This document shows, piece by piece, positions 23,886-56,896 of a stretch of DNA of 64,000 nucleotides (its first letter is position 1; every line of letters begins with the position of its first letter). The notes beneath the pieces are model-generated. The model saw nothing but the letters and a program-made list of their open reading frames with translations, ran no database searches and was not told where the DNA came from. Position numbers and translations under genes: made by a program. Source of the DNA: an uncultured Acidimicrobiia bacterium (GTDB lineage: Bacteria; Actinomycetota; Acidimicrobiia; Spongiisociales; UBA11373); assembly GCA_964354255.1 (NCBI GenBank), contig CAYGYX010000002.1:8697-72696 (forward strand), read 5' to 3'.

Positions 23886-25607
23886 GTGCCCGAGGGCGAG
23901 AGCTCTGCCGAAGAGTCCGCTCAGACCATCAGGATGCTGGAAGAGGAGATCGCCATCCTCCGGCGGCGGCTGCAGGATGCCCCCCGCCGGGTGCGAGTCC
24001 TGGAGGAGCGCCTGCTCGAGGCGAAGGGCCGGCTCTCGCAGGCGACGTCCCAGAACGAACGCCTCTCGGCGGCTTTGCAGGAAACCCGCGAGCAGCTGAC
24101 GCTGCTGCGGCGCGAAGTGGAGAAGCTGACCGCCCCACCCAACCCCTTCGCCGTGATCGAGCGGGTCAACCCCGACGGCACGCTCGACGTGTTGACGGGA
24201 GGCCGCAAGCTGCGGGTGGGGGTCCAGCCCTCCATCGAGGTCAAAGAGCTGGACCGCGGCCAGGAGGTACTGCTCAACGAGGCCATGAGCGTGATCGACG
24301 TGGGCACATTCGACGCGGGGGGCGAGGTGACCACGGTCAAGGAGGTCCTGGGGGACGGCCGGGTCATCGTCGTCGGGCCGGCCGACGACGAACGGGTCGT
24401 GGGCCTGGCCGGGCCCATGGAGCCGGTTCCCCTGCGGGTAGGGGACGCGGTTCGCCTGGATGCTCGTACCGGGCTGATCCAGGAGCGCCTGGTGCGCCCG
24501 GAGGTCGAAGAGCTGGTGCTGGAGGAGATACCCGACATCACCTACGAGCAGATCGGCGGCCTGACGGCTCAGATCGAGACAATCCGCGACGCCGTCGAAC
24601 TGCCCTACCTCTACAAGCACCTCTTCGAGGACTACGAGCTCAGCGCCCCCAAGGGGGTGCTCCTCTACGGGCCCCCCGGCTGCGGGAAGACCCTCATCGC
24701 CAAGGCGGTGGCCAACAGCCTGGCCGGGGCGGTGGCGGCCAAGACCGGGTCGGTCGACGCCCGCTCCTACTTCCTCAACATCAAGGGCCCCGAGCTCCTG
24801 AACAAGTACGTCGGCGAGACCGAGCGCCAGATCCGCCTCATCTTCGCCCGGGCGAAGGAGAAGTCCGACGAGGGGGTCCCGGTCATCGTGTTCTTCGACG
24901 AGATGGATTCCCTCTTCCGCACCCGGGGGAGCGGCGTCTCGTCGGACGTTGAATCCACCGTGGTACCGCAGCTGCTGTCCGAGCTGGACGGGGTGGAGGG
25001 CCTCAAGAACGTGATCGTGATCGGGGCCTCCAACCGCGAGGACCTCATCGACCCGGCCATCCTGCGCCCCGGCCGACTCGATGTGAAGATCAAGGTGGAA
25101 CGCCCGGACGTGGCGGCCGCCCGGGAGATATTCGGGATCTACCTGCGGCGCAGCCTCCCCTTCGCCGATGACGAGCTGGGGGCTGCCGGGGGCGACCTCT
25201 CCGCTCTGATCGCCTCCCTGATCGACCGGGTGGTGGAGGCCATGTTCGCCACCGTCCACGAGAACCGCTTCCTCGAGGTGACCTATGCCAATGGGGACAA
25301 GGAGACCCTCTACTTCCGCGACTTCGCCTCCGGGGCGATGATCGAGAACGTGGTGCGCCGGGCGAAGAAGGCGGCAATCAAGCGGGAGATCGCCGGCGGG
25401 GCCAGGGGAGTGGGAGTCGGCGACCTGCTGGGGGCGGTGCGCCAGGAGTACCGCGAGCACGAGGACCTCCCCAACACCACCAACCCCGACGACTGGGCCC
25501 GCATCTCCGGCAAGAAGGGCGAGCGCATCGTCTACGTGCGCACCCTGGTGGAGGGAGACACCCCCCACCGCGCCATCGAGGCGATCAGCACGGGCCAGTA
25601 CCTGTGA
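23886..25607 (+). CDS. mpa: proteasome-associated AAA ATPase Mpa/ARC
   Basis: N-terminal coiled coil, Walker A GPPGCGKT, Walker [10 protein letters not shown] and a C-terminal GQYL proteasome-docking motif. It starts at a GTG. Confidence 0.9.
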
Positions 25608-27103
25608 GCCGGTCGGTCCGCAAGATCCTCGGGACCGAGACCGAGTTCGGCATCGCGGTGAGGGGACGGCCGGGCTACGACCCGGTCATGGCCAGCAGCC
25701 TGGCGGTGGCCGCCTACACCGGGCCTTCCCGCACCAACTGGTCCTCCGAGGAGGAGACGCCGGGGCGCGACGCCCGCGGGTTCGCCCGGATTGCCGGCGA
25801 GCCGGACACCGGCATGCTCAACGCGGCGCTGAGCAACGGCGCCCGCCTCTACGTCGACCATGCCCACCCCGAGTACTCGACCCCCGAGTGCTTCGACCCT
25901 CTCGAGGGAGCCCTCTACGACAAGGCGGGCGAGCTGATCATGGCTCAGGCGGCGGCTGCCGTCGAACTCCCTCCGGGCGAGCGGCTGCTGATCTACAAGA
26001 ACAACAGTGACGGGAAGGGCAACTCGTACGGGGCGCACGAAAACTACTTGATGGCCCGGTCGGTGCCCTTCGAGGAGATCGCACGCCACCTCACCGCCTT
26101 CCTGGTCACCCGACAGGTGCTCACCGGGGCGGGGAAGGTGGGGAGCGAGAACGGCCGCCCCCGGGTTTCCTACCAGATCAGCCAGCGGGCCGACTTCTTC
26201 GAGGAGGAGGTCGGGCTGGAGACCACGGTCCGGCGCCCCATCAACAACACGCGGGACGAGCCCCACGCCGATCCTGCCACCTACCGGCGCCTGCACGTGA
26301 TCGTCGGCGACGCGAACCTCTCCGAGCAGCAGATCTTCCTCAAGCTGGGCGCCACCGCCTTGGTGCTGGCCGCCCTCGAGATGGGGACGCTGGGCAAGCC
26401 GGTGGCGCTCGAGAGCCCGGTCGAGTCCCTCTGGCGAATCAGCCACGACCCCACCTTGCGCCGGACCGTCCGCCTGGCCGGCGGGCGCAGCGCGACGGCA
26501 CTCGATCTGCAGCACGAATACCTGAGCAGGGCGGCGGCCGGTGCCGGCGGGGAAGTCGGGGACCCAGTGTCCGGCCGGGTGCTGGCCCTTTGGGAGGAGG
26601 CGCTGGCGGATCTCGAGCGCGATCCGCTCTCCACCTCCGGCTACCTGGATTGGACGGCCAAGCTCGCCTTGCTCGAGGGGTATCGGGAGCGCGATCGCCT
26701 TGCCTGGGATCACCCCAAGCTGCGGCTGCTCGACCTCCAGTACCACGACGTCGACCCGCAGCGCAGCCTGTACGGGCGGCTGGTAGCGGCCGGGCGAATG
26801 AAGCGGCTCTTCAGTGACGAGGAGATCGAACGGGCCACCGTGGCCCCACCGGGGGGGACGCGCGCCTACTTCCGCGGGCGGTGCGTCGCCAAGTACGGTG
26901 AGGCCGTGGTGTCGGCCAACTGGGACTCGCTGGTGCTGGACACGGGCCGGGCTGCTCTCCAACGGGTGCCTATGATGGACCCGCTGCGCGGGGGCCGGGA
27001 GAGCGTGGCCGACCTCATAGATCGGTGCGCCTCGGCCGCCGACCTCGTCCGTGCCCTCGGAGGAAACAATGGCCGAACAGGAACGCAAACACCCCCGTCG
27101 TAG
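25604..27103 (+). CDS. dop: Pup deamidase/depupylase Dop
   Basis: PafA/Dop carboxylate-amine ligase fold ([23 protein letters not shown]). At 499 aa it carries the Dop-specific insertion, and it is positioned immediately upstream of pup. Confidence 0.85.
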
Positions 27104-27263
27104 CGAGGCTCGCCGGGAGGCTGCGGCCGAGCTCGTGACCCCACGGGACGTCGGGGGCGAGCTGACCGAGAAGATCGACGGCCTGCTCGAAGAGATCGAC
27201 AGCGTTCTCGAGGAGAATGCCGAGGAGTTCGTCAGGGACTACGTGCAGAAGGGGGGCCAGTGA
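27069..27263 (+). CDS. pup: prokaryotic ubiquitin-like protein Pup
   Basis: 64 aa, [43 protein letters not shown], with the C-terminal GGQ. The start lies 35 nt inside the dop 3' end. Confidence 0.85.
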   Translation: MAEQERKHPRRSEARREAAAELVTPRDVGGELTEKIDGLLEEIDSVLEENAEEFVRDYVQKGGQ

Positions 27264-28048
27264 TCACCGATCCCCCGGGAGCCCCCGGGTCCCCCGTGCC
27301 GGGCGAGAGCTTCACCGCGCTCTTGCGGGCCCAGGGGATGGAGCCCCGCTGGACCCTCCCCTCCGACGCGTCTCTCCTCGACGCCCCGGAAGGCACCACG
27401 GTGCTGGCCTTCCGCTACGTCGACGGGGTGATCATGGCCGGCGACCGGCGGGCCACGGCCGGCAACGTCATTGCCTATCGCACCATGCAGAAAGTATTCC
27501 CGGCCGATGCATACTCGGCAGTAGGCGTTTCCGGGACGGCCGGGGTGGGGGTCGAGCTGATACGCCTCTTCCAGACCGAACTGGAGCACTACGAGAAGCT
27601 CGAAGGAAGTCGCCTCAGCCTGGAGGGCAAGGCCAACCACCTGGCCGCCATGGTACGGGCCCACCTCCCTATGGCCTTCCAGGGCCTGGTGGTCGTACCC
27701 CTGTTCTGCGGGTTCGATGAGGACGGCGGGCAGGGGCGGCTCTACAGCTTCGACGTGGTCGGGGGGCGCTACGAAGAGACCGACTACGCCGCCACCGGCT
27801 CGGGAGGCCGCGATGCCAAGGCCTACCTCCGCACCGCTTTCCGGGAGTCCTTGAGCGAAGAGGAAGCGCTGCGGCTGGCCATCGAGTCCCTGGTCGCCGC
27901 CGCCGAGGAAGACACCGCGACCGGAGGACCGGACCTGCAGCGCGGGATCTACCCCAATGTGGCAGTCGTGTCGGCAGAGGGATACCGCGAGATCGATGAG
28001 GAGCGGGTGGCGGCCGTGTCTCGCGAGGTGATGGGAGCCGCGCGATGA
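27260..28048 (+). CDS. prcB: 20S proteasome beta subunit (with propeptide)
   Basis: Propeptide then G/TTVLAFRY (Thr1 nucleophile), with the Ntn-hydrolase fold. GTGA overlap with pup. Confidence 0.9.
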   Translation: MITDPPGAPGSPVPGESFTALLRAQGMEPRWTLPSDASLLDAPEGTTVLAFRYVDGVIMAGDRRATAGNVIAYRTMQKVFPADAYSAVGVSGTAGVGVELIRLFQTELEHYEKLEGSRLSLEGKANHLAAMVRAHLPMAFQGLVVVPLFCGFDEDGGQGRLYSFDVVGGRYEETDYAATGSGGRDAKAYLRTAFRESLSEEEALRLAIESLVAAAEEDTATGGPDLQRGIYPNVAVVSAEGYREIDEERVAAVSREVMGAAR

Positions 28049-28719
28049 ACCTCCCCTTCTACGTTCCCCCCGAACAGCTGATGAAGGACCGGGCGGAATA
28101 CGCCCGCAAGGGAATCGCCCGGGGCAAATCGATAGCGGCCGTGGCCTACGCCGACGGCATCCTGCTACTCGCCGAGAACCCGAGCGGCACGCTCCACAAG
28201 ATCGGGGAGATCTACGACCGCATCGCCTTCGCCGGGGTAGGGAAGTACACCGAGTTCGAGGCGCTGCGCGTGGCCGGCATCCGCCATGCGGACCTCAAGG
28301 GGTACGCCTATGCCCGCCGCGACGTGACGGCCAAGGGACTGGCCAACGCCTACGCACAGGTGCTCGGCCAGATCTTCACCCAGGAGATCAAGCCGTACGA
28401 GGTGGAGATCATGGTGGCCGAGGTCGGGAAGGACAGCGGAGCAGATCTCCTGTTCAAGGTCACCTACGACGGCACCCTCTTCGCCGAGGAGCACTACTCG
28501 GCCATCGGCGGCCAGGAGGAACGGCTGACGGCCTTCCTGCAGGAGCACTTCCGTGCTGGAGCCTCCCTACCCGAGGCGCTGGGCTGGGCAGTGGGCGCCT
28601 TCGAGGCGGCCAGCTCGCAGAGGTTCGAGCCCCAGGAGTGGGAAGCCGCGGTTGTCGACCGCACCCTGGGACGGCGCACCTTCCGGCGTCTCCGGGGCGA
28701 GGAGATGACGCCGGCCTAG
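28045..28719 (+). CDS. prcA: 20S proteasome alpha subunit
   Basis: [29 protein letters not shown], the alpha-subunit N-terminus. ATGA overlap with prcB. Confidence 0.9.
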   Translation: [224 protein letters not shown]

Positions 28720-29081
28720 AGCAGCCGGGCCACCACGAGCCAGAGGGTCAGGACCAGGAGCAGCGCCCCCAGGGCCACCGTCAGCGGGCTCCAGCCGGCC
28801 TTCGGCGGGACCGGGGCCCGTTCCGGCTCGCCGTCCGCCAACTCGAGGTGGCTGATGTCCCCCTCGGCCACGAGGCTGCGAGCATCGTCGAGGCGGCTGA
28901 GGGGCACCCAGACCTGGGTGGCGGCCATCTCCCCGATGGTGAGCCGATAGGGCCCAAGAGACTCGCCCCGCAGGCGCGACTCGATACCCTCGGAGCGCAG
29001 GAGAGCGGCACACAGGTCGGCGGCGGCCGGATCGCTCACCGTGGCCAGCAGGAGGAAGGGCTCGGGGTCGGTCGAGGGCAC
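28716..29081 (-). CDS. DUF2007-like (putative signal-transducing) small membrane protein, antisense within the PPS locus
   Basis: This is the C-terminal 121 aa of antisense track ORF 28716..31091. VPSTDPEPFLLLATVSDPAAADLCAALLRSEGIESRLRGESLGPYRL... ends with a TM helix (WSPLTVALGALLLVLTLWLVVARLL). It has a GTG start at 29081. It fills the otherwise empty 428-bp prcA-pafA gap. The remainder of the 791-aa ORF is antisense to pafA and was rejected. Confidence 0.4.
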   Translation of the reverse strand: MPSTDPEPFLLLATVSDPAAADLCAALLRSEGIESRLRGESLGPYRLTIGEMAATQVWVPLSRLDDARSLVAEGDISHLELADGEPERAPVPPKAGWSPLTVALGALLLVLTLWLVVARLL

Positions 29082-29147
29082 CTCCGGATCGTATCGGCCT
29101 CTGCCTCCTAACCGGCCAACGGCCGAGGCCGGGGTACCCTGCCCGGC

Positions 29148-30503
29148 GTGGAACGGCGCATCGTCGGAATGGAGAACGAGTACGGGGTGACCTGCACCCT
29201 GCGGGGGCAGCGGCGCCTGTCCGCCGATGAGGTGGCCCGCTACCTCTTCCGGCGGGTGGTCTCCTGGGGCCGGTCCTCGAACGTCTTCCTCGAGAACGGG
29301 GCCCGCCTGTACCTGGATGTGGGCAGCCATCCGGAGTACGCCACCCCGGAGTGCGACAGCCTCTACGAGTTGGTGGCCCACGACAAAGCGGGGGAGCGGG
29401 TGCTGGAGGGCCTGTTGCACTCCGCCGAGCGCCGGCTGGAGGAGGAGGGCATCAGGGGCCAGGTGTACCTCTTCAAGAACAACACCGACTCGGCCGGGAA
29501 CTCGTATGGCTGCCACGAGAACTACCTGGTGGCCCGGCAGGGGGACTTCCAGCACATCCTGGACACCCTCATCCCATTCCTGGTCAGCCGGCAGGTGTTC
29601 TGCGGCGCGGGCAAGGTGCTCCAGACCACGCGCGGGCCGGTGTACTGCCTGGCGCAGCGCGCCGAGCACATCTGGGAGGGCGTCTCTTCGGCCACTACCC
29701 GCAGCCGTCCGATCATCAACACCCGCGACGAGCCTCATGCCGATGCCGAGCGCTACCGGCGGCTGCACGTCATCGCCGGCGATTCCAACATGAGCGAGTA
29801 CGCCACCTACGCCAAGGTGGGGAGCACCCTGGCCCTGCTGCAGATGCTGGAGGAGGGGGTGGTGTTCCGCGACCTCGGCTTGGAGAACCCGATCCGGGCG
29901 CTGCGCGAGATCAGCCGCGACGTCACCTGCCGGCGCAGGGTGCGGCTGGCGAACGGCCGGGAGCTCTCCGCCCTGGACATCCAATGGGAGTACCTGGAGC
30001 GGGTGCTCCGCTACTCGCGGGCGCATTCCTTCCCGGCGCAGGTCGAGGCCGCGGTCGCGATGTGGGAGCACTTGCTCACCGGCCTGGAGAAGGACCCGCT
30101 CTCTCTGCGGCGCGAGTGCGACTGGGTCGCCAAGTACCACCTCGTGGAAGACTACCGAGCGCATCGCGACCTCGACCTGGGGGACCCGCGGGTCTCCTTG
30201 CTCGATCTCACCTACCACGACGTCAGCCGGGAGCGCGGCCTCTACTACATCCTGCAACGGCGCGGAATGGTGGACCGGGTGGTCACCGACGAAGACGTGG
30301 CGCGGGCCCTGCTCGACCCGCCCCAGACGACCCGCGCCCGCCTGCGTGGAGAGTTCATCAAGGCGGCCAAGGCGCGCCAGCGTGATATCACCGTCGACTG
30401 GGTGCACCTGAAGGTGAACGACCAGGCACAGCGCACGGTGCTGCTCAAGGATCCCTTTCGCGCCTTCGACGACCGCGTCGACCGTCTCATCGCCGGGCTC
30501 TGA
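29148..30503 (+). CDS. pafA: Pup-protein ligase PafA
   Basis: [31 protein letters not shown]. At 451 aa it has no Dop loop, and it sits downstream of prcA. Confidence 0.9.
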
Positions 30504-38528: not shown

Positions 38529-38657
38529 ATGGATTCTACGCGGATCGACTCCCTGCTCCACGATCTGGAGGATGCCGACCCCGCCGACGCTCCCGACCTC
38601 GCCGAGGCTGTGGCCCGGGCGCTGTCCAGCGGGCTCGATACCGGGGCGGTCCGCTGA
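38529..38657 (+). CDS. small acidic upstream ORF (42 aa) whose stop overlaps the probable tlyA start
   Basis: MDSTRIDSLLHDLEDADPADAPDLAEAVARALSSGLDTGAVR. It has a strong SD (GGGAGGG) 9 nt upstream of the ATG. Its TGA at 38655..38657 overlaps CTG 38654. It is too short for the ORF track. Confidence 0.35.
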   Translation: MDSTRIDSLLHDLEDADPADAPDLAEAVARALSSGLDTGAVR

Positions 38658-39436
38658 CCCGCCGTCGACTCGACCTGGAGTTGGTGCGGCGCGGACTGCT
38701 CACTACCCGCTCCGCGGCACAGCGGGCAATCGCCGAAGGGCGGGTCCTGGTCGGCGGCATGCCTGCCACCCGGTCGGCAACGCTGGTGGATGAGCAAGTG
38801 GCCCTGTCGCTCGTCCGGGAAGGCCCGCAGTGGGCGAGTCGCGGCGGCGTCAAGCTGGCCGCCGCCCTGGAGGCGTTCGCCGTGGACCCCTCCGGCCGGC
38901 GGTGCCTCGACGTGGGCGCCTCCACCGGCGGCTTCACCGACGTGCTCGTGGCCCGGGGGGCGGCCAGCGTGGCTGCGGTCGACGTCGGTTACGGCCAACT
39001 CGACTGGCGGCTGCGCTCCGACCCCCGGGTGAGGGTCTTCGACCGCACCAACTTCCGTACGGCCGACCCGGGGGCACTGGGAGCTCCCTTCGACATGGCC
39101 ACCATGGACGTCTCTTTCATCTCGATCCGCCTGCTGGCCGCCAATCTGGCGGCTTGCGGCCGGCCCGGCACCGACTACGTTGTCCTCGTGAAGCCCCAGT
39201 TCGAGGTTGGGCGAGAGCACGTTGGTCGCGGCGGCCTGGTCACCGACCCTCTCCGGCAGGCGTCCGCGATCGACGGCGCGGCCCGGGCGCTGGCCGCGGT
39301 GGGCATAGGCCCCATCGGGGTCTGCGCCTCACCGATCGCCGGCACTACGGGCAATCGCGAGTTCTTCCTGCACGGCCGACACGGTGCCGGTCCGGCCGTC
39401 GACCGAGCGTCGGTCGAGGCAATGGTGACCCGATGA
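38654..39436 (+). CDS. tlyA: 16S/23S rRNA (cytidine-2'-O)-methyltransferase TlyA (S4 + FtsJ-like)
   Basis: S4 domain (T)RRRLDLELVRRGLLTTRSAAQRAIAEGRVLVGGMP plus the MTase motif LDVGASTGGFTDVL. The conserved N-terminus begins 9 codons upstream of the first canonical start (TTG 38681). The proposed start is CTG 38654. A conservative alternative is 38681..39436. Confidence 0.75.
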   Translation: MTRRRLDLELVRRGLLTTRSAAQRAIAEGRVLVGGMPATRSATLVDEQVALSLVREGPQWASRGGVKLAAALEAFAVDPSGRRCLDVGASTGGFTDVLVARGAASVAAVDVGYGQLDWRLRSDPRVRVFDRTNFRTADPGALGAPFDMATMDVSFISIRLLAANLAACGRPGTDYVVLVKPQFEVGREHVGRGGLVTDPLRQASAIDGAARALAAVGIGPIGVCASPIAGTTGNREFFLHGRHGAGPAVDRASVEAMVTR

Positions 39437-47455: not shown

Positions 47456-48033
47456 ACGACCTCGTGGCAACCTTGGAAGCCATCCTGTTCGTGGCCGAGG
47501 ACCCGGTGCCCGTACGGGAGATTGCCGAGGTGTTGGAGGTGCCGCTCGCGTCCGTGGAGGAGGGTCTGGCCGCCCTCCAGGCTCGGCTCGAGGCAACCGG
47601 GGCCGGGCTGGTGGTGCGGCCGGCAGCGGCGGGCTGGCGCCTTTACACCCGACCCGACCTCCACCCCTACCTCGAGCGCTTCGCCGCGGGCGCCACCGCC
47701 GCCCGCCTCAGCCGCGCCGCGTTGGAGACACTGGCGGTCGTGGCCTACCGCCAGCCGGTGTCGCGAGCCCAGATCGGGGAGATCCGCGGGGTCGACTCCG
47801 ACCACGCCCTCCGTACCCTGGAACGACGGGGCCTCGTGGACGTGGTAGGGCGGGCCGGAGGGCCGGGACAGGCCGCCCTCTACGGCACCACCGACCTCTT
47901 CTTGGAGAAGCTGGGTATGCGGTCGCGCGCTGAGCTGCCGCCCCTGGCCGACCACGTGCCCCCGGCCGGAATCGTCGATCGGCTCGAGGAGCCTTTCCGC
48001 CCGGAGGAACCATCGAGCGACTCCAGCGCCTGA
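47443..48033 (+). CDS. scpB: segregation and condensation protein B
   Basis: LEAILFVAEDPVPVREIAEVL..GAGLVVRPAAAGWRLYTRPD..TLAVVAYRQPVSRAQIGEIRGV, i.e. the tandem wHTH of ScpB. Confidence 0.8.
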   Translation: MAELNDLVATLEAILFVAEDPVPVREIAEVLEVPLASVEEGLAALQARLEATGAGLVVRPAAAGWRLYTRPDLHPYLERFAAGATAARLSRAALETLAVVAYRQPVSRAQIGEIRGVDSDHALRTLERRGLVDVVGRAGGPGQAALYGTTDLFLEKLGMRSRAELPPLADHVPPAGIVDRLEEPFRPEEPSSDSSA

Positions 48034-48716
48034 TCGCCCACGCCGGGCTGGCTTCCCGGCGCGCCGCCGAGGACATGGTCCGGGCCGGCCGGGTCACCGT
48101 GGATGGGCGGGCCGCCCACCTCGGACAGAAGGTCGATCCCGCCACCGCCCGGGTAGAGGTCGACGGCATCCCACTCCCCATTCGTCCCGACCTGGTCTAC
48201 TACCTGCTGTTCAAGCCGGCCGGGGTGGTAAGCACCGCCTCCGACCCGCAAGGGCGGCCCACGGTGGTGGACCTGGTGCCCAAGGGCACCCGCGTCTACC
48301 CGGTCGGGCGCCTCGACGCCGACACCGAGGGGTTGGTCATCCTCACCAACGACGGGGACCTGGCGGCGCGGGTGACCCATCCCCGCCACGGCGTCGGCAA
48401 GACCTACCTGGCCCGGGTCACCGGCAACCCGGGGAGGGCGGCCCTGCGGGCGCTCATCGCCGGGGTGGAGTTGGAGGACGGCCCCGCCCGCGCTCGGGAG
48501 GCCCGGCTGGTGAGTCAACAGCGGGGCGAGGCACTGGTCCAGTTGGTCATGGGAGAGGGCCGCAAGCGAGAGGTGCGTCGCCTGCTGGCGGCAGTGGGCC
48601 ACCCGGTGCTGGCCCTGGTCCGCACAGCCATCGGCCCCGTTACCGACCGCGGCCTCAAGCCCGGAGCCTGGCGCGAACTCACTCTCGACGAGATCCGCTC
48701 CCTCTACATGGGATGA
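48012..48716 (+). CDS. rluB: 23S rRNA pseudouridine synthase RluB (S4 + RsuA-family catalytic domain); start codon uncertain
   Basis: S4 domain (I)ERLQRLIAHAGLASRRAAEDMVRAGRVTVDG plus catalytic GRLDADTEGLVILTNDG. The conserved S4 N-terminus lies upstream of the first canonical start (ATG 48075). There is no ATG/GTG/TTG in frame between the stop at 47931 and 48075. An ATC at 48012 is the proposed near-cognate start. The conservative CDS is 48075..48716. Confidence 0.7.
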   Translation: MERLQRLIAHAGLASRRAAEDMVRAGRVTVDGRAAHLGQKVDPATARVEVDGIPLPIRPDLVYYLLFKPAGVVSTASDPQGRPTVVDLVPKGTRVYPVGRLDADTEGLVILTNDGDLAARVTHPRHGVGKTYLARVTGNPGRAALRALIAGVELEDGPARAREARLVSQQRGEALVQLVMGEGRKREVRRLLAAVGHPVLALVRTAIGPVTDRGLKPGAWRELTLDEIRSLYMG

Positions 48717-53223: not shown

Positions 53224-53298
53224 CGGGCTGTGGCGCAGCTTGGTTAGCGCGCTTGACTGGGGGTCAAGAGGTCGCCGGTTCGAATCCGGCCAGCCCGA
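53224..53298 (+). tRNA. tRNA-Pro (anticodon GGG)
   Basis: Manual cloverleaf: acceptor CGGGCUG/CAGCCCG, D-stem GCGC/GCGC, anticodon stem CUUGA/UCAAG, loop CUGGGGG (U33, G34-G36 = GGG, G37), T-arm GCCGG-UUCGAAU-CCGGC and discriminator A. 75 nt with no encoded CCA. Confidence 0.8.
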
Positions 53299-53353
53299 CG
53301 GAGCTCCGCCTCCTGCCGGGCTTCGTCGGCGTTCCGGCGAGGAAGGTTGAGGA

Positions 53354-54004
53354 ATGAGCGAGCAGAAGATCGAGTTCACCCGCAACTACCACGACCAGAG
53401 CACCAACGAGGGATTCCAGTTCGAGTTCGTGTGCGACCGCTGCGGGACCGGCTTCCGCACTCCCTTCGACGACTTCGTGGTGGCCCGCGTCACGGGCGGC
53501 TTGCAGACCGCCTCGCACATGCTCGGCGGGCTGCTCGGGCGGGCCGCCCAGGTGGGAGAGCACGTCCGCTCCGCCGCTTGGGAGAAGGCGCACGACAAAG
53601 CCTTCCGCGAGGCCGCCGAGAAGCTGAAGCCCGACTTCCGGCAATGCCCGCGTTGCTCGAGGTGGGTGTGCCGCCGCCAGTGCTGGAACGACGGGAAGGG
53701 CCTGTGCAAGAACTGCGCGCCGGACCTGGGCGTGGAGATGGCCGCCGCTCAATCCTCCCGGACCGTGGAAGAGATCTGGGCGCACTCGAAGATGGCCGAG
53801 GAGGACAGGGAGATGCTGAAGGAGGAATCCTGGCGCGAGGGTGCCACCGCCTCCTGTCCCGGGTGCGAAGCCCCCTTGCCCGCCAAGACCAAGTTCTGCC
53901 CGGAGTGCGGTACCGCCATCGGCCGGGCGGCCAACTGCGCCAAGTGCGGCGCCAAGCTCGAAGCCGGGGCCAAGTTCTGCGGCGAGTGCGGGGCGAAGGC
54001 CTAG
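53354..54004 (+). CDS. hypothetical multi-zinc-ribbon protein (four or five CxxC pairs)
   Basis: CDRCGTG, CPRCSRWVCRRQCWNDGKGLCKNC, CPGCEAPLPAKTKFCPECG and CAKCGAKLEAGAKFCGECG. It sits 56 nt downstream of the tRNA-Pro. The overlapping frame of track ORF 53347..55707 was rejected for this segment. Confidence 0.55.
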   Translation: MSEQKIEFTRNYHDQSTNEGFQFEFVCDRCGTGFRTPFDDFVVARVTGGLQTASHMLGGLLGRAAQVGEHVRSAAWEKAHDKAFREAAEKLKPDFRQCPRCSRWVCRRQCWNDGKGLCKNCAPDLGVEMAAAQSSRTVEEIWAHSKMAEEDREMLKEESWREGATASCPGCEAPLPAKTKFCPECGTAIGRAANCAKCGAKLEAGAKFCGECGAKA

Positions 54005-54042
54005 GGGGCCACCTGCTCCGCCTCCCTCATGCCAACCTGGTC

Positions 54043-55707
54043 GTGGTCGCCGGGCCGCGGCTGGAGCCCGGGTGGCCGGCCCTGGTGGGGAAGGGCCGGC
54101 GGGGGACCGCCCGCCTCTTCACCAATTGCCACGCCCCGGCGGTCGAGCCTGCCGCCGCGGTCGGCATGCTGCTGGCGGGCGACCTCCCGTCGCCCGCCGA
54201 GCCGGTCGAGGAGCTGTGGCGGTTCGCCCCCCCGCACCTGGGCCACTTCCTGGCCGGATCCCACTACCGCCTGGCTCTGCTGCTGGCGGCCCCCGCGATC
54301 GCCCAGGAGGTCAGGAGCAGCACCTTCGCCACCGGTTTTGACGACGTGCGGCTGGTGGAGCCGGGCGGTCACGGCGGTGCTGCCCTCGGGGCCGCGGCCG
54401 CTCATCTGGCCGAGTGCGCGAGGCAGGCCGACCGTCCCTGGTACCTGTTCGCTTACCTCCCGGGGGAGGATGGCCTCTTGGAGGCCATCGCCGCCCTGAT
54501 GGCCACAACCTCGTTCCGCAACACCATGCTCGTGGTGTACGACACCGGCCTGGGCGGCACCGGCCCCACGCGCCGCACCCCGCTGTGGCTGGAGCGCCCC
54601 GGCCGGCCCGGACCCATCAACCCGGGGTCGGTGGTGTACCCCCACCTGGTCTCTCCGGTTGACCTGCCGCTCACCCTGCTAGGGGAGACAACCCCCGCCT
54701 CGCCGATCGCCCGCGATCTGTGGACCCGCGCCGGCGGCCTCCGGGGCGACCTCCTCGCCGCCACACTCGGGGTCGGCGGGCAGGTGGACGACGAGGTCGC
54801 GGCAGCCTGCCTGCTGCGCCTAGCCGCCACGCGGGGGGCCCCCGCCCCGGGCCGGTTCGAGCCGGTCTCCTTCGTGGTCGCGGTGGACGACCCGGCCGAG
54901 CTGCACAACAACCTGCTGCGGTGCCCTCTCGCCCGGCACAGCGAGCATCAGTGGCTGTTGATCGACAACACCCAAGCGGCGTACCCGAGCATCTCCCGCC
55001 TCTACGACGACGCCTACGGGCGCGCCGTCAACGACCTCGTGCTCTTCTGTCACCAGGACCTCCTACTTCCCGAGGGCTGGGAAGCTCTCTTCTTCTCCGC
55101 CCTGGCCGACCTGGAACGGGCCGACCCGGCCTGGGGGGTCATCGGTTCAGTGGGGGTGGTGCCCCACCCGCCCACAGCCAGTCAGGAGCCCCTGCGCCGG
55201 GCGTCCCGGTTGCGCGGGCACTGGGCAGACCCGAGAGGCCATCACTACGCGGGGCCCCTGCCCCACGCCGTGGACTGCCTGGATGAGATGTGGCTCGGCC
55301 TGCGCAAGAGGAGCGGGGTTCGCTTCGATCGGGACCTGCCCGGCTTCCACTGCTATGGCATCGACCTCTCGCTGACGGCCCGTCGCACAGGGCGCCGGTC
55401 CTATGCGCTCGACTCCTTCGTCTGGCATAAGCATCGCGACGCGCAAGGCCGAGTGATCACCCGGCCCCAGGAGTCAACCCGCATCCGCCAGCGCTCCGGC
55501 GAGCAGTTCCGCCAGCGCTATGCCCAGTCATATGATTACGTCGCCGGCAAGTGGGGACAGATGCGGCCCTTCGCCTCGACCTCGGCGGATTGGCCCGCCT
55601 GCCCTCCTGGGCCGGGCCTCCCGGCCCCAGACGGGCCGCGGAAGGCAAGAGGGTCAGCAGCGGAGGGGTCGGCTCATCCGACGCCGCCGCCGGGCAGAAT
55701 GCGCTAA
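54043..55707 (+). CDS. hypothetical 554-aa protein with a C-terminal glycosyltransferase family 2-like (GT-A fold) region, possibly two degenerate GT-A halves
   Basis: This is the second part of track ORF 53347..55707, beginning after the Zn-ribbon gene stop. GTG 54043 (VVAGPRLEPG) was chosen as the start. The C-terminal SFVVAVDDPAELHNNLLRCP..WLLIDNTQ..LVLFCHQDLLLPEGW..FHCYGIDLS resembles GT2 motif order, with DxD replaced by HQD. There is no signal peptide or TM segment. Confidence 0.4.
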   Translation: MVAGPRLEPGWPALVGKGRRGTARLFTNCHAPAVEPAAAVGMLLAGDLPSPAEPVEELWRFAPPHLGHFLAGSHYRLALLLAAPAIAQEVRSSTFATGFDDVRLVEPGGHGGAALGAAAAHLAECARQADRPWYLFAYLPGEDGLLEAIAALMATTSFRNTMLVVYDTGLGGTGPTRRTPLWLERPGRPGPINPGSVVYPHLVSPVDLPLTLLGETTPASPIARDLWTRAGGLRGDLLAATLGVGGQVDDEVAAACLLRLAATRGAPAPGRFEPVSFVVAVDDPAELHNNLLRCPLARHSEHQWLLIDNTQAAYPSISRLYDDAYGRAVNDLVLFCHQDLLLPEGWEALFFSALADLERADPAWGVIGSVGVVPHPPTASQEPLRRASRLRGHWADPRGHHYAGPLPHAVDCLDEMWLGLRKRSGVRFDRDLPGFHCYGIDLSLTARRTGRRSYALDSFVWHKHRDAQGRVITRPQESTRIRQRSGEQFRQRYAQSYDYVAGKWGQMRPFASTSADWPACPPGPGLPAPDGPRKARGSAAEGSAHPTPPPGRMR

Positions 55708-55726
55708 GCACAACGGAAGGAAGTCA

Positions 55727-56896
55727 ATGACGGCCTATGGAGTGGTGGGAGCCGGACGCCAGGGCACCGCGGCGGCGTACGACCTGGCCCGGCACGGCGG
55801 CGCTACCCGCCTCGTGGTGGCCGATCAGGATGGGGCGGTGGCCCGGCGGGCCGCCGACCGCGTGAACCGCCTCCTCGGCGCGGAAGTGACCGAGGCCGCC
55901 GAGTTCGACGTGGCCGACCGCCGCGCCCTGGCCAAGTTCCTCTCGCCGCTGGACGTCTACATCTGCGCCGTGCCGTATGCCTTCTTGCTGCCCTGCACCC
56001 GGGCGGCCATCGCCTCCGGTACCGGCATGGTCGACTTGGGAGGGCACACGGACACCGTCGTGGCACAACTGGCGTTGCACCCCGAGGCCCGCCAGGCGGG
56101 CGTGGCCATCGTGCCCGACTGCGGCATGGGACCGGGCATGAACAACACCCTCGGGCTCTACGCCATGGAGCTCATGCAAGCCCGGGGTGCCACCCCCCGC
56201 CACATCCGCTTGTGGGACGGGGGCCTGCCCCAGGATCGCTCCCAGCCCTGGGGCTACCGCCTCTGCTTCAACCTCGAGGGCCTCACCAACGAGTACGACG
56301 GCGAGGCGGTGATGCTGCGGGAAGGGCGCATAGTCCACGTCGAGACGCTGAGCGAGTTGGAGCCCGTCGACTTCGACGAGTTGGGCACTCTCGAGGCCTT
56401 CGTGACCTCCGGCGGGACCTCCACCGTCCCCTTCGCCTTCCAGGGAGTCCTGGAGACCTACGACAACAAGACGGTCCGCTACCCGGGCCACCTGGAGGCT
56501 TTCAAGGCCTTCAAGGACCTGGGTCTCTTCGGGCGGGACCCGGTGCGGGTGGGCAAAGCCGAGGTCCGCCCGCGGGACTTCTACCACGCCCTCCTAGGCC
56601 CCATCATCGAGTCGGAAGGCCTGGTGGACGTGTGCGTGCTCCGGGCCCAGGCCGAGGGCGAGATGAACGGGGAGCGCGCCACAGTCACCGTCGACATGGT
56701 CGACCGGCACGACCCGGCCACCGGGTTCGCCGCCATGGAGCGCCTGACCGGATGGCACGCCTCGATCATGGCCGCCCTCATCGCCGCCGGCGAAGTGCCC
56801 GCCGGGGTGCATTCGCTGGAGAAGGCCGTGCCGGCAACCCGGTTCATGCAGGAGGTCCGCCGGCGCGGGCTTTCGTTCAGCGAGCGCTGGGGTTAG
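55727..56896 (+). CDS. saccharopine-dehydrogenase-family NAD(P)-dependent oxidoreductase
   Basis: Rossmann motif VVGAGRQGTAAAYDLA and Sacchrp_dh N- and C-domain architecture. An RBS (GGAAGG) precedes the ATG at 55727. The track ORF start at 55520 was rejected. Confidence 0.65.
   Translation: MTAYGVVGAGRQGTAAAYDLARHGGATRLVVADQDGAVARRAADRVNRLLGAEVTEAAEFDVADRRALAKFLSPLDVYICAVPYAFLLPCTRAAIASGTGMVDLGGHTDTVVAQLALHPEARQAGVAIVPDCGMGPGMNNTLGLYAMELMQARGATPRHIRLWDGGLPQDRSQPWGYRLCFNLEGLTNEYDGEAVMLREGRIVHVETLSELEPVDFDELGTLEAFVTSGGTSTVPFAFQGVLETYDNKTVRYPGHLEAFKAFKDLGLFGRDPVRVGKAEVRPRDFYHALLGPIIESEGLVDVCVLRAQAEGEMNGERATVTVDMVDRHDPATGFAAMERLTGWHASIMAALIAAGEVPAGVHSLEKAVPATRFMQEVRRRGLSFSERWG

Follow-up and report, generated by a model that had tools for sequence, protein, structure and literature searches.

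Introduction

Confirmed conserved bacterial start codons other than ATG, GTG and TTG are few, and comprise those of infC, pcnB and a handful of recent additions. In infC (AUU in Escherichia coli, AUA in Staphylococcus aureus) and pcnB (AUU), a near-cognate AUH codon that departs from AUG at the third position is conserved at the orthologous start, and initiation from it is weak and sensitive to initiation factor 3 (IF3). A conserved non-canonical start combined with a strong and well-spaced Shine-Dalgarno (SD) motif is likewise found in ccpN (AUA), cvfC1 (AUU) and citZ (AUA) of S. aureus and Bacillus subtilis, where the starts were mapped by ribosome profiling and reporters. Conserved AUU and AUA starts with strong SD motifs have been reported for infC, ccpN and cvfC1, and in S. 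aureus and B. subtilis such codons cut expression about ten-fold, starts of the ccpN, cvfC1 and citZ type lowering it to about 10% of that from AUG (10.1101/2025.06.19.660503). Here, we describe rluB in a 64,000-nucleotide (nt) stretch, hereafter the window, of contig CAYGYX010000002.1 from an uncultured Acidimicrobiia bacterium (GCA_964354255.1). This gene very probably encodes a complete and functional S4-domain 23S rRNA pseudouridine synthase that initiates at the near-cognate codon ATC at position 48012, within the 3′-terminal region of scpB. As judged from sequence comparison, its start belongs to the small known class represented by infC, pcnB, ccpN and cvfC1.

The locus nevertheless differs from each of these systems. 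Unlike infC, rluB encodes no initiation factor but an rRNA pseudouridine synthase, and no autoregulatory logic is evident. Unlike both infC and pcnB, it uses AUC, the least documented of the AUH codons, does so in one clade of Acidimicrobiia, and starts inside the upstream gene. It is known here by comparison, in contrast to the experimentally mapped ccpN, cvfC1 and citZ, which are moreover other genes in other phyla. The arrangement also resembles the coupled gene pairs with ATGA or TGATG junctions (PMC6728339; PMC12548453), in which two genes are likewise co-directional and the downstream start lies inside the upstream gene. Direct analogues of ATGA are the CTGA junction of a second gene in the window, tlyA, and the ATAG junction of certain rluB variants, both of which are described below. 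In the window itself, however, rluB overlaps its upstream gene by 22 nt, in place of the typical 4 or 1, and would be restarted at a non-canonical codon. Searches of the literature turned up neither a report of an rluB that starts at ATC nor one of a pseudouridine synthase gene with a non-canonical start.

The rluB locus and its product

The rluB frame is closed upstream by an in-frame TGA at 47931-47933 of the plus strand, and the 26 codons between this stop and the proposed start (47934-48011) include neither ATG, GTG or TTG nor any other near-cognate codon with a single mismatch. After ATC, the frame continues with GAG CGA CTC CAG and is translated as ERLQRLIAHAGLASRRAAEDMVRAG. The first canonical codon is ATG 48075, which yields the 213-amino acid (aa) product in the list of open reading frames (ORFs) and in the gene calls of three other assemblies. 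These positions of the stop, the ATC and the first ATG had been given in the original prediction, and all of them hold on re-reading (coordinates of the features are collected in Table 1). A run of 47 codons without a canonical start is not improbable at 71% GC, its chance being on the order of 10% by rough estimate rather than computation; the significance of the missing canonical start comes from homology and comparative data.

The S4 profile PF01479 aligns over its positions 1-44 with residues 2-43 of the protein read from the ATC (36.8 bits, E 3.2e-9, cut-off 22.8), and in the same Pfam search this match is gone from the 213-aa version started at ATG 48075. The earlier proposal that the S4 N-terminus lies upstream of the only canonical start thus holds, since the match needs the residues that precede this ATG. 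In alignments with the structures of E. coli RluB (4lab, 9cl9), native residue 3 falls on residue 2 of the query, and profile position 3 of the NCBIfam RluB model falls on the same Glu. The ATC therefore sits at the usual initiator Met of RluB or at the residue beside it.

Downstream of the S4 domain, the catalytic domain PF00849 is matched with 71 bits (E 1.7e-19), and TIGR00093 with 162.9 bits against a cut-off of 109.3. The GRLD motif with the catalytic Asp is kept, VGRLDADTEGL of this protein being aligned with VGRLDVNTCGL of E. coli RluB. The equivalog model for RluB, the 23S Psi2605 synthase (NF007976), scores 166.2 bits, below its cut-off of 290, but still gives the highest score of the named families in NCBIfam, with RsuA at 126.9 and RluF at 121.9. 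The name rluB is accordingly based on this best match and on the synteny scpA-scpB-rluB-cmk, and not on the equivalog score. Taken by its domains and motifs, the gene is a typical RsuA/RluB-type pseudouridine synthase. Both the S4 and catalytic domains are shared with E. coli RluB (4lab, 4lgt, 9cl9), to which residues 2-228 are aligned with E of about 1e-45. The long basic C-terminal tail of the E. coli enzyme has no counterpart here, and U2605 is a putative target of the present protein.

Conservation of the start codon among relatives

Junction DNA was collected from species-representative genomes and metagenomes, and each locus was anchored on the codon aligned to the ATC. The clade to which the window belongs is represented by 41 loci, which reduce to 35 distinct junction sequences with 55-92% RluB identity to the window and include 13 species-representative metagenome-assembled genomes (MAGs); its members are labelled as Acidimicrobiia, Actinomycetota or Actinomycetes MAGs, or as environmental contigs. 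Codon 1 is ATC in 34 of these 35 sequences and ATA in the remaining one (locus L007), and two further loci carry ATC (L172) and ATA (L173). None of the 35 contains ATG, GTG or TTG anywhere from codon −12 to codon +5, and codon 1 is the only position at which a near-cognate codon is present in all of them, the runner-up position reaching 8/35. Further downstream, codon 22, which corresponds to ATG 48075, is Met in 15 sequences, Leu in 19 and Trp in one, and a canonical codon is first reached anywhere from codon 7 to codon 30, or not at all.

In a neighbour-joining tree of RluB proteins, the sequences with ATC or ATA form one clade. In its sister group, an ATG is placed at the preceding codon (GGAGGG ATG ACC...), and on other branches ATG, GTG or TTG lies within three codons. 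Nested within the ATC clade are two loci, L009 and L011, in which an ATG has reappeared two codons upstream; in exactly these two, GCA or GTA replaces the Ile codon. In lineages with a canonical start, the residue at codon 1 is highly variable. These comparisons indicate that Ile at codon 1 is linked to the absence of a canonical start. Several loci of other rluB lineages that had been flagged for want of a nearby canonical start, among them L030, L032, L078 and L143, were rejected as further cases because they have N-terminal extensions with ATG or GTG 14-30 codons upstream.

As a separate observation, locus L041 has no canonical rluB start between an in-frame TGA 16 codons upstream and codon 47, whereas in L025, a close relative, GTG starts are present at the corresponding place, about 60 nt upstream of rluB. 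This contrast looks like a 1-nt indel and is possibly an assembly error.

Switch of coding constraint at the ATC

Summed column entropy and the ratio of non-synonymous to synonymous polymorphism (pN/pS) were determined by codon stretch over the 35 distinct clade junctions. Over codons −20 to −1, the entropies at positions 1/2/3 of the rluB frame are 24.1/11.3/8.6 with pN/pS of 2.0, and pN/pS in the scpB frame is 0.40. The rluB frame then gives 2.1/1.0/5.4 and pN/pS of 0.41 over codons 2-7, 6.0/4.7/17.6 and 0.32 over codons 8-21, and pN/pS of 0.40 over codons 22-40, while the scpB frame is unconstrained in the six codons after ATC (pN/pS 2.7). Variation upstream of the ATC thus sits at rluB position 1, which is the scpB wobble position, and from codon 2 onward at rluB position 3. 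In addition, the rluB frame is interrupted by stops at codons −9, −12 and −21 in some clade members. Because of this flip in entropy and pN/pS and of the upstream stops, the rluB frame is protein-coding from codon 1 onward and not before.

Ribosome-binding context and the overlap with scpB

Of the 35 clade sequences, 29 have a GGAGG motif that ends 4 nt short of the ATC, five retain only a 4-mer and one has none. The two scpB wobble bases inside the motif have entropies of 0.19 and 0.00, as compared with 1.1-1.9 at neighbouring wobble sites, and these near-invariant bases therefore point to selection on the nucleotides themselves. In the window, cmk, pgsA/cls and hpt also have this motif 4 nt before their canonical starts. 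In the sister clade with ATG at codon −1, GGAGG is kept in 3/6.

Counted from the A of ATC, the scpB stop follows at 19 nt in 34/35 sequences, which corresponds to an overlap of 22 nt. In the ATA variants (L007 and L173; positions 401-404 in the latter), the A of the altered codon creates a TAG, so that stop and start overlap by 4 nt as ATAG and ScpB is six residues shorter. This loss is consistent with an unconstrained ScpB tail past the rluB start.

Proposed initiation at AUC and its alternatives

The comparison of junctions shows where translation must begin, and that both the codon at this position and the SD motif are conserved, in agreement with the central claim of the original prediction, a near-cognate start at ATC 48012; the clade-invariant codon, the onset of constraint and the SD motif 4 nt upstream all speak for it. 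As to the mechanism, the GGAGG inside the end of scpB would position the ribosome at AUC, probably with additional help from translational coupling to scpB, given that the scpB stop follows the ATC by 19 nt. The initiator tRNA would read AUC with a third-position mismatch, and the protein would start with Met-Glu-Arg-Leu-Gln. The four non-canonical codons from which E. coli initiates best are AUA, AUC, AUU and CUG, at 1-2% of AUG, and an AUC-initiated protein bears an N-terminal Met (10.1101/063800); in Mycobacterium smegmatis, ATC with an SD motif initiates at a level that is low but above background (PMC4633059). Initiation at the rluB AUC is thus expected to be inefficient and IF3-sensitive, and the arrangement would keep RluB low and tie its synthesis to translation of scpB. 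What we infer for this start is that AUC is read as Met, that initiation is inefficient, coupled to scpB and sensitive to IF3, and what the SD motif and coupling each contribute.

Several points weigh against initiation at the ATC. AUC is very weak wherever it has been assayed (10.1101/063800; PMC4633059). The SD motif overlaps the conserved C-terminal Pro-Glu-Glu of ScpB, so that its conservation is partly coding-driven, and 6/35 sequences are without the full GGAGG. The preference for ATC over ATT or ATA is uninformative, because Ile codons are almost always ATC in these GC-rich genomes; codon 8 also shows 34:1. The clade sequences share descent, and their counts are therefore not independent events. 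Basal members carry ATC-ATC, which offers two candidate start codons. Finally, every clade member is an uncultivated MAG or a metagenome contig, with its start inferred by comparison.

A sequencing or assembly error at the ATC is the least probable of the alternatives, together with a strain-specific change of ATG to ATC, which would make the gene a fresh pseudogene. Although ATC is one base from ATG, and three distant relatives (L014, L104 and L105) have ATG at codon 1, the exact 213-aa and ScpB products are found on three other assemblies from separate runs (ERR3804374, ERR3804373 and SRR27069944). The junctions of these assemblies, which come from near-identical strains, agree with the window at the ATC, and the third has two single-nucleotide polymorphisms nearby and is therefore a different strain. 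The same codon is present in 13 species-level MAGs and in over 20 metagenome contigs of unrelated projects; over the 35 distinct clade sequences, many projects and assemblers are represented. Sequencing and base-calling errors are thereby excluded, and with them the systematic G-to-C fault that had been put forward as another explanation; the purifying selection that still acts on rluB contradicts a fresh pseudogene. It had also been proposed that relatives with a canonical codon at the equivalent of the ATC would point to an error here. Such relatives do exist, with ATG at the same codon in the three loci named above and one codon upstream in L026, L035, L027, L037 and L121, but they are no sign of an error, because they lie on other branches of the tree and have a different state, which is possibly the ancestral one. 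Also very unlikely is a true start of RluB at the first canonical codon, by which the first half of the S4 domain would be gone and the upstream similarity would be a decaying remnant. Gene callers do pick ATG 48075, and a weak GAGG lies 2 nt before it. This truncated form is nevertheless contradicted by the constraint on codons 2-21, which equals that on the rest of the gene (pN/pS of 0.32-0.41 as against 0.40), and by the lack of conservation of Met22, which is Leu or Trp in 20/35 sequences; the first canonical codon moves between codons 7 and 30 or is absent, and the S4 match is lost.

Relative to scpB, rluB lies in the −1 frame, and just upstream is a conserved internal SD-like motif, of a kind that stimulates frameshifting in dnaX and prfB, so that RluB might be made as a fusion to ScpB by a −1 frameshift in the last scpB codons, programmed and promoted by the internal GGAGG. 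The presence of rluB-frame stops at codon −9 in some members would confine such a shift to nine codons. Within codons −8 to +1, however, neither a slippery heptamer of the form X XXY YYZ nor a conserved re-pairing site is present, and the −1 codon that corresponds to Pro-CCG varies among members (CCC, GCC, TCC, ACC). The RNA fold of 47975-48095 is neither stable nor unusual (z = −0.02 relative to shuffles), and no natural in-frame scpB-rluB fusion occurs among 152 loci. With slippery site, structure and fusions all absent, the frameshift is rejected as highly improbable. A closer alternative retains the AUC codon and differs in the recruitment step: ribosomes that end scpB at its stop would step back 19 nt and initiate at AUC mainly by termination-reinitiation, and delivery of ribosomes, not the strength of the codon, would limit expression. 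The nearly constant distance of the scpB stop from the ATC, the ATAG overlap in the ATA variants and the parallel CTGA overlap of tlyA agree with this idea, and coupling over negative spacings down to −38/−50 nt has been reported (PMC12548453). On the other hand, coupling is most efficient at a spacing of −4/−1 (PMC12548453), the conserved rluB codons CTG ATC for Leu-Ile by themselves fix the 19-nt distance, and the selected SD motif argues for at least a partial role of SD pairing. Predominant reinitiation is therefore a possible but less likely route than SD-guided initiation at AUC with coupling as an aid.

The tlyA gene and other features of the window

The original prediction regarded tlyA as another S4-domain gene with the same problem as rluB. 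This is correct in that its family model starts upstream of the canonical codons, but the codon in question is CTG, not ATC. The first canonical starts, TTG 38681 and GTG 38684, lie 5-6 residues inside the TlyA model, profile position 1 of which is at 38666. The S4 profile aligns over positions 1-44 with residues 4-47 of the CTG-started TlyA, and the S4 score is 34.9 bits from CTG as compared with 25.3 bits from GTG 38684. The CTGA junction and the residues L-T/S-R-R-R-L-D are kept, with synonymous changes, in six distinct relatives of 65-79% identity, and an NCBI record (L171, GCA_016870535.1) already begins tlyA at CTG. The conserved 42-aa upstream ORF that forms this junction lies between a rhomboid-family gene and tlyA and is called as a gene of 42-46 aa in relatives; it matched no Pfam family in a Pfam search, and its main role may be to bring ribosomes to the CTG of tlyA.

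Table 1. Positions in the window of the features of the rluB and tlyA loci.
Feature	Position	Strand	Basis or remark
scpB, 196 aa	47443..48033	+	Pfam SMC_ScpB at residues 10-168; TIGR00281 match
scpB stop TGA	48031-48033	+	Last 22 nt of scpB overlap rluB in the +1 frame
Shine-Dalgarno-like GGAGGA	48003..48008	+	Within scpB codons for Pro-Glu-Glu; GGAGG core ends 4 nt before ATC
ATC, proposed rluB initiation codon	48012..48014	+	Clade conservation; aligns with the ATG of L014/L104/L105
Full-length rluB as proposed, 234 aa plus stop	48012..48716	+	Profile and structure alignments
S4 RNA-binding domain, residues 2-43	48015..48140	+	PF01479 profile 1-44; E. coli RluB structures
ATG (Met22), first canonical start, chosen by gene callers	48075..48077	+	Not conserved as a start
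PseudoU_synth_2 catalytic domain, residues 63-194, including the GRLDADTEG motif	48198..48593	+	PF00849; TIGR00093
tlyA as proposed, start CTG 38654-38656	38654..39436	+	CTG conserved in relatives; S4 alignment
42-aa upstream ORF (MDSTRIDSLLHDLEDADPADAPDLAEAVARALSSGLDTGAVR)	38529..38657	+	TGA 38655-38657 overlaps the tlyA CTG as CTGA

A survey with NCBIfam models on stop-to-stop translations covered 40 coding stretches of the window, about 27 of which have an informative family N-terminus. Only in rluB and tlyA does the family model begin upstream of the first canonical start, about 25 others looking normal, although the survey is blind to near-cognate starts in genes with an upstream in-frame canonical codon or a variable N-terminus. 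With two flagged genes, the survey argues against a genome-wide start anomaly or a systematic error.

The only Rfam match in the window is a tRNA-Pro, and ARAGORN found no initiator tRNA there. The tRNA-Pro (GGG) at 53224-53299 overlaps the start of an 816-codon open stretch (53257-55704, plus strand) with coding-like GC content at third codon positions; neither this stretch nor the adjacent one at 55457-56893 has an NCBIfam match. A complete Pup-proteasome cluster is located at 23886-30503 of the plus strand, in the order mpa, dop, an interval of some 150 nt at the expected place of pup, prcB, prcA and pafA, with an unassigned gap of 430 nt between prcA and pafA (28719-29148).

Annotation and significance

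NCBI annotation of these genes is inconsistent. The rluB product is truncated on the NCBI record for this genome and for most of its relatives; for rluB and tlyA alike, shortened products are given by the record of this genome and by the majority of JGI, ENA and Logan calls. Within the best 120 homologues, those above about 76% identity are mostly called as 213 aa. Other homologue calls begin inside the S4 domain, with LIAHAG, MAHSG, LASRR or MIRAG, and more distant ones begin with MERLQK. Dozens of entries among the homologue matches are thus of 213 aa or otherwise clipped at the N-terminus, with loss of the S4 Pfam match, and such clipped RluB entries could spread into other databases. Two NCBI records, GCA_036396055.1 (L172) and GCA_036478235.1 (L173), already start the orthologue at ATC and ATA, respectively. 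Correction of this systematic mis-annotation of rluB is the main immediate value of the present analysis.

It is conceivable, though improbable, that RluB (AUC) and TlyA (CUG) are deliberately kept under near-cognate starts in this lineage, so that their synthesis would respond to initiation fidelity through the level of IF3 or the assembly state of the 30S subunit; defects in 30S assembly are reported to relax the scrutiny of start codons by IF3 (PMC6868393). If this were true, ribosome quality and rRNA modification would be linked by a feedback that resembles the autoregulation of infC. An AUC start that is kept to about 55% protein divergence would be a clear natural example of a conserved near-cognate start, to which the selected SD motif and the presence of a second, CUG-started gene in the same genomes add weight. 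The rluB locus would thus provide a natural system for studying what maintains weak start codons and what is regulated through them.

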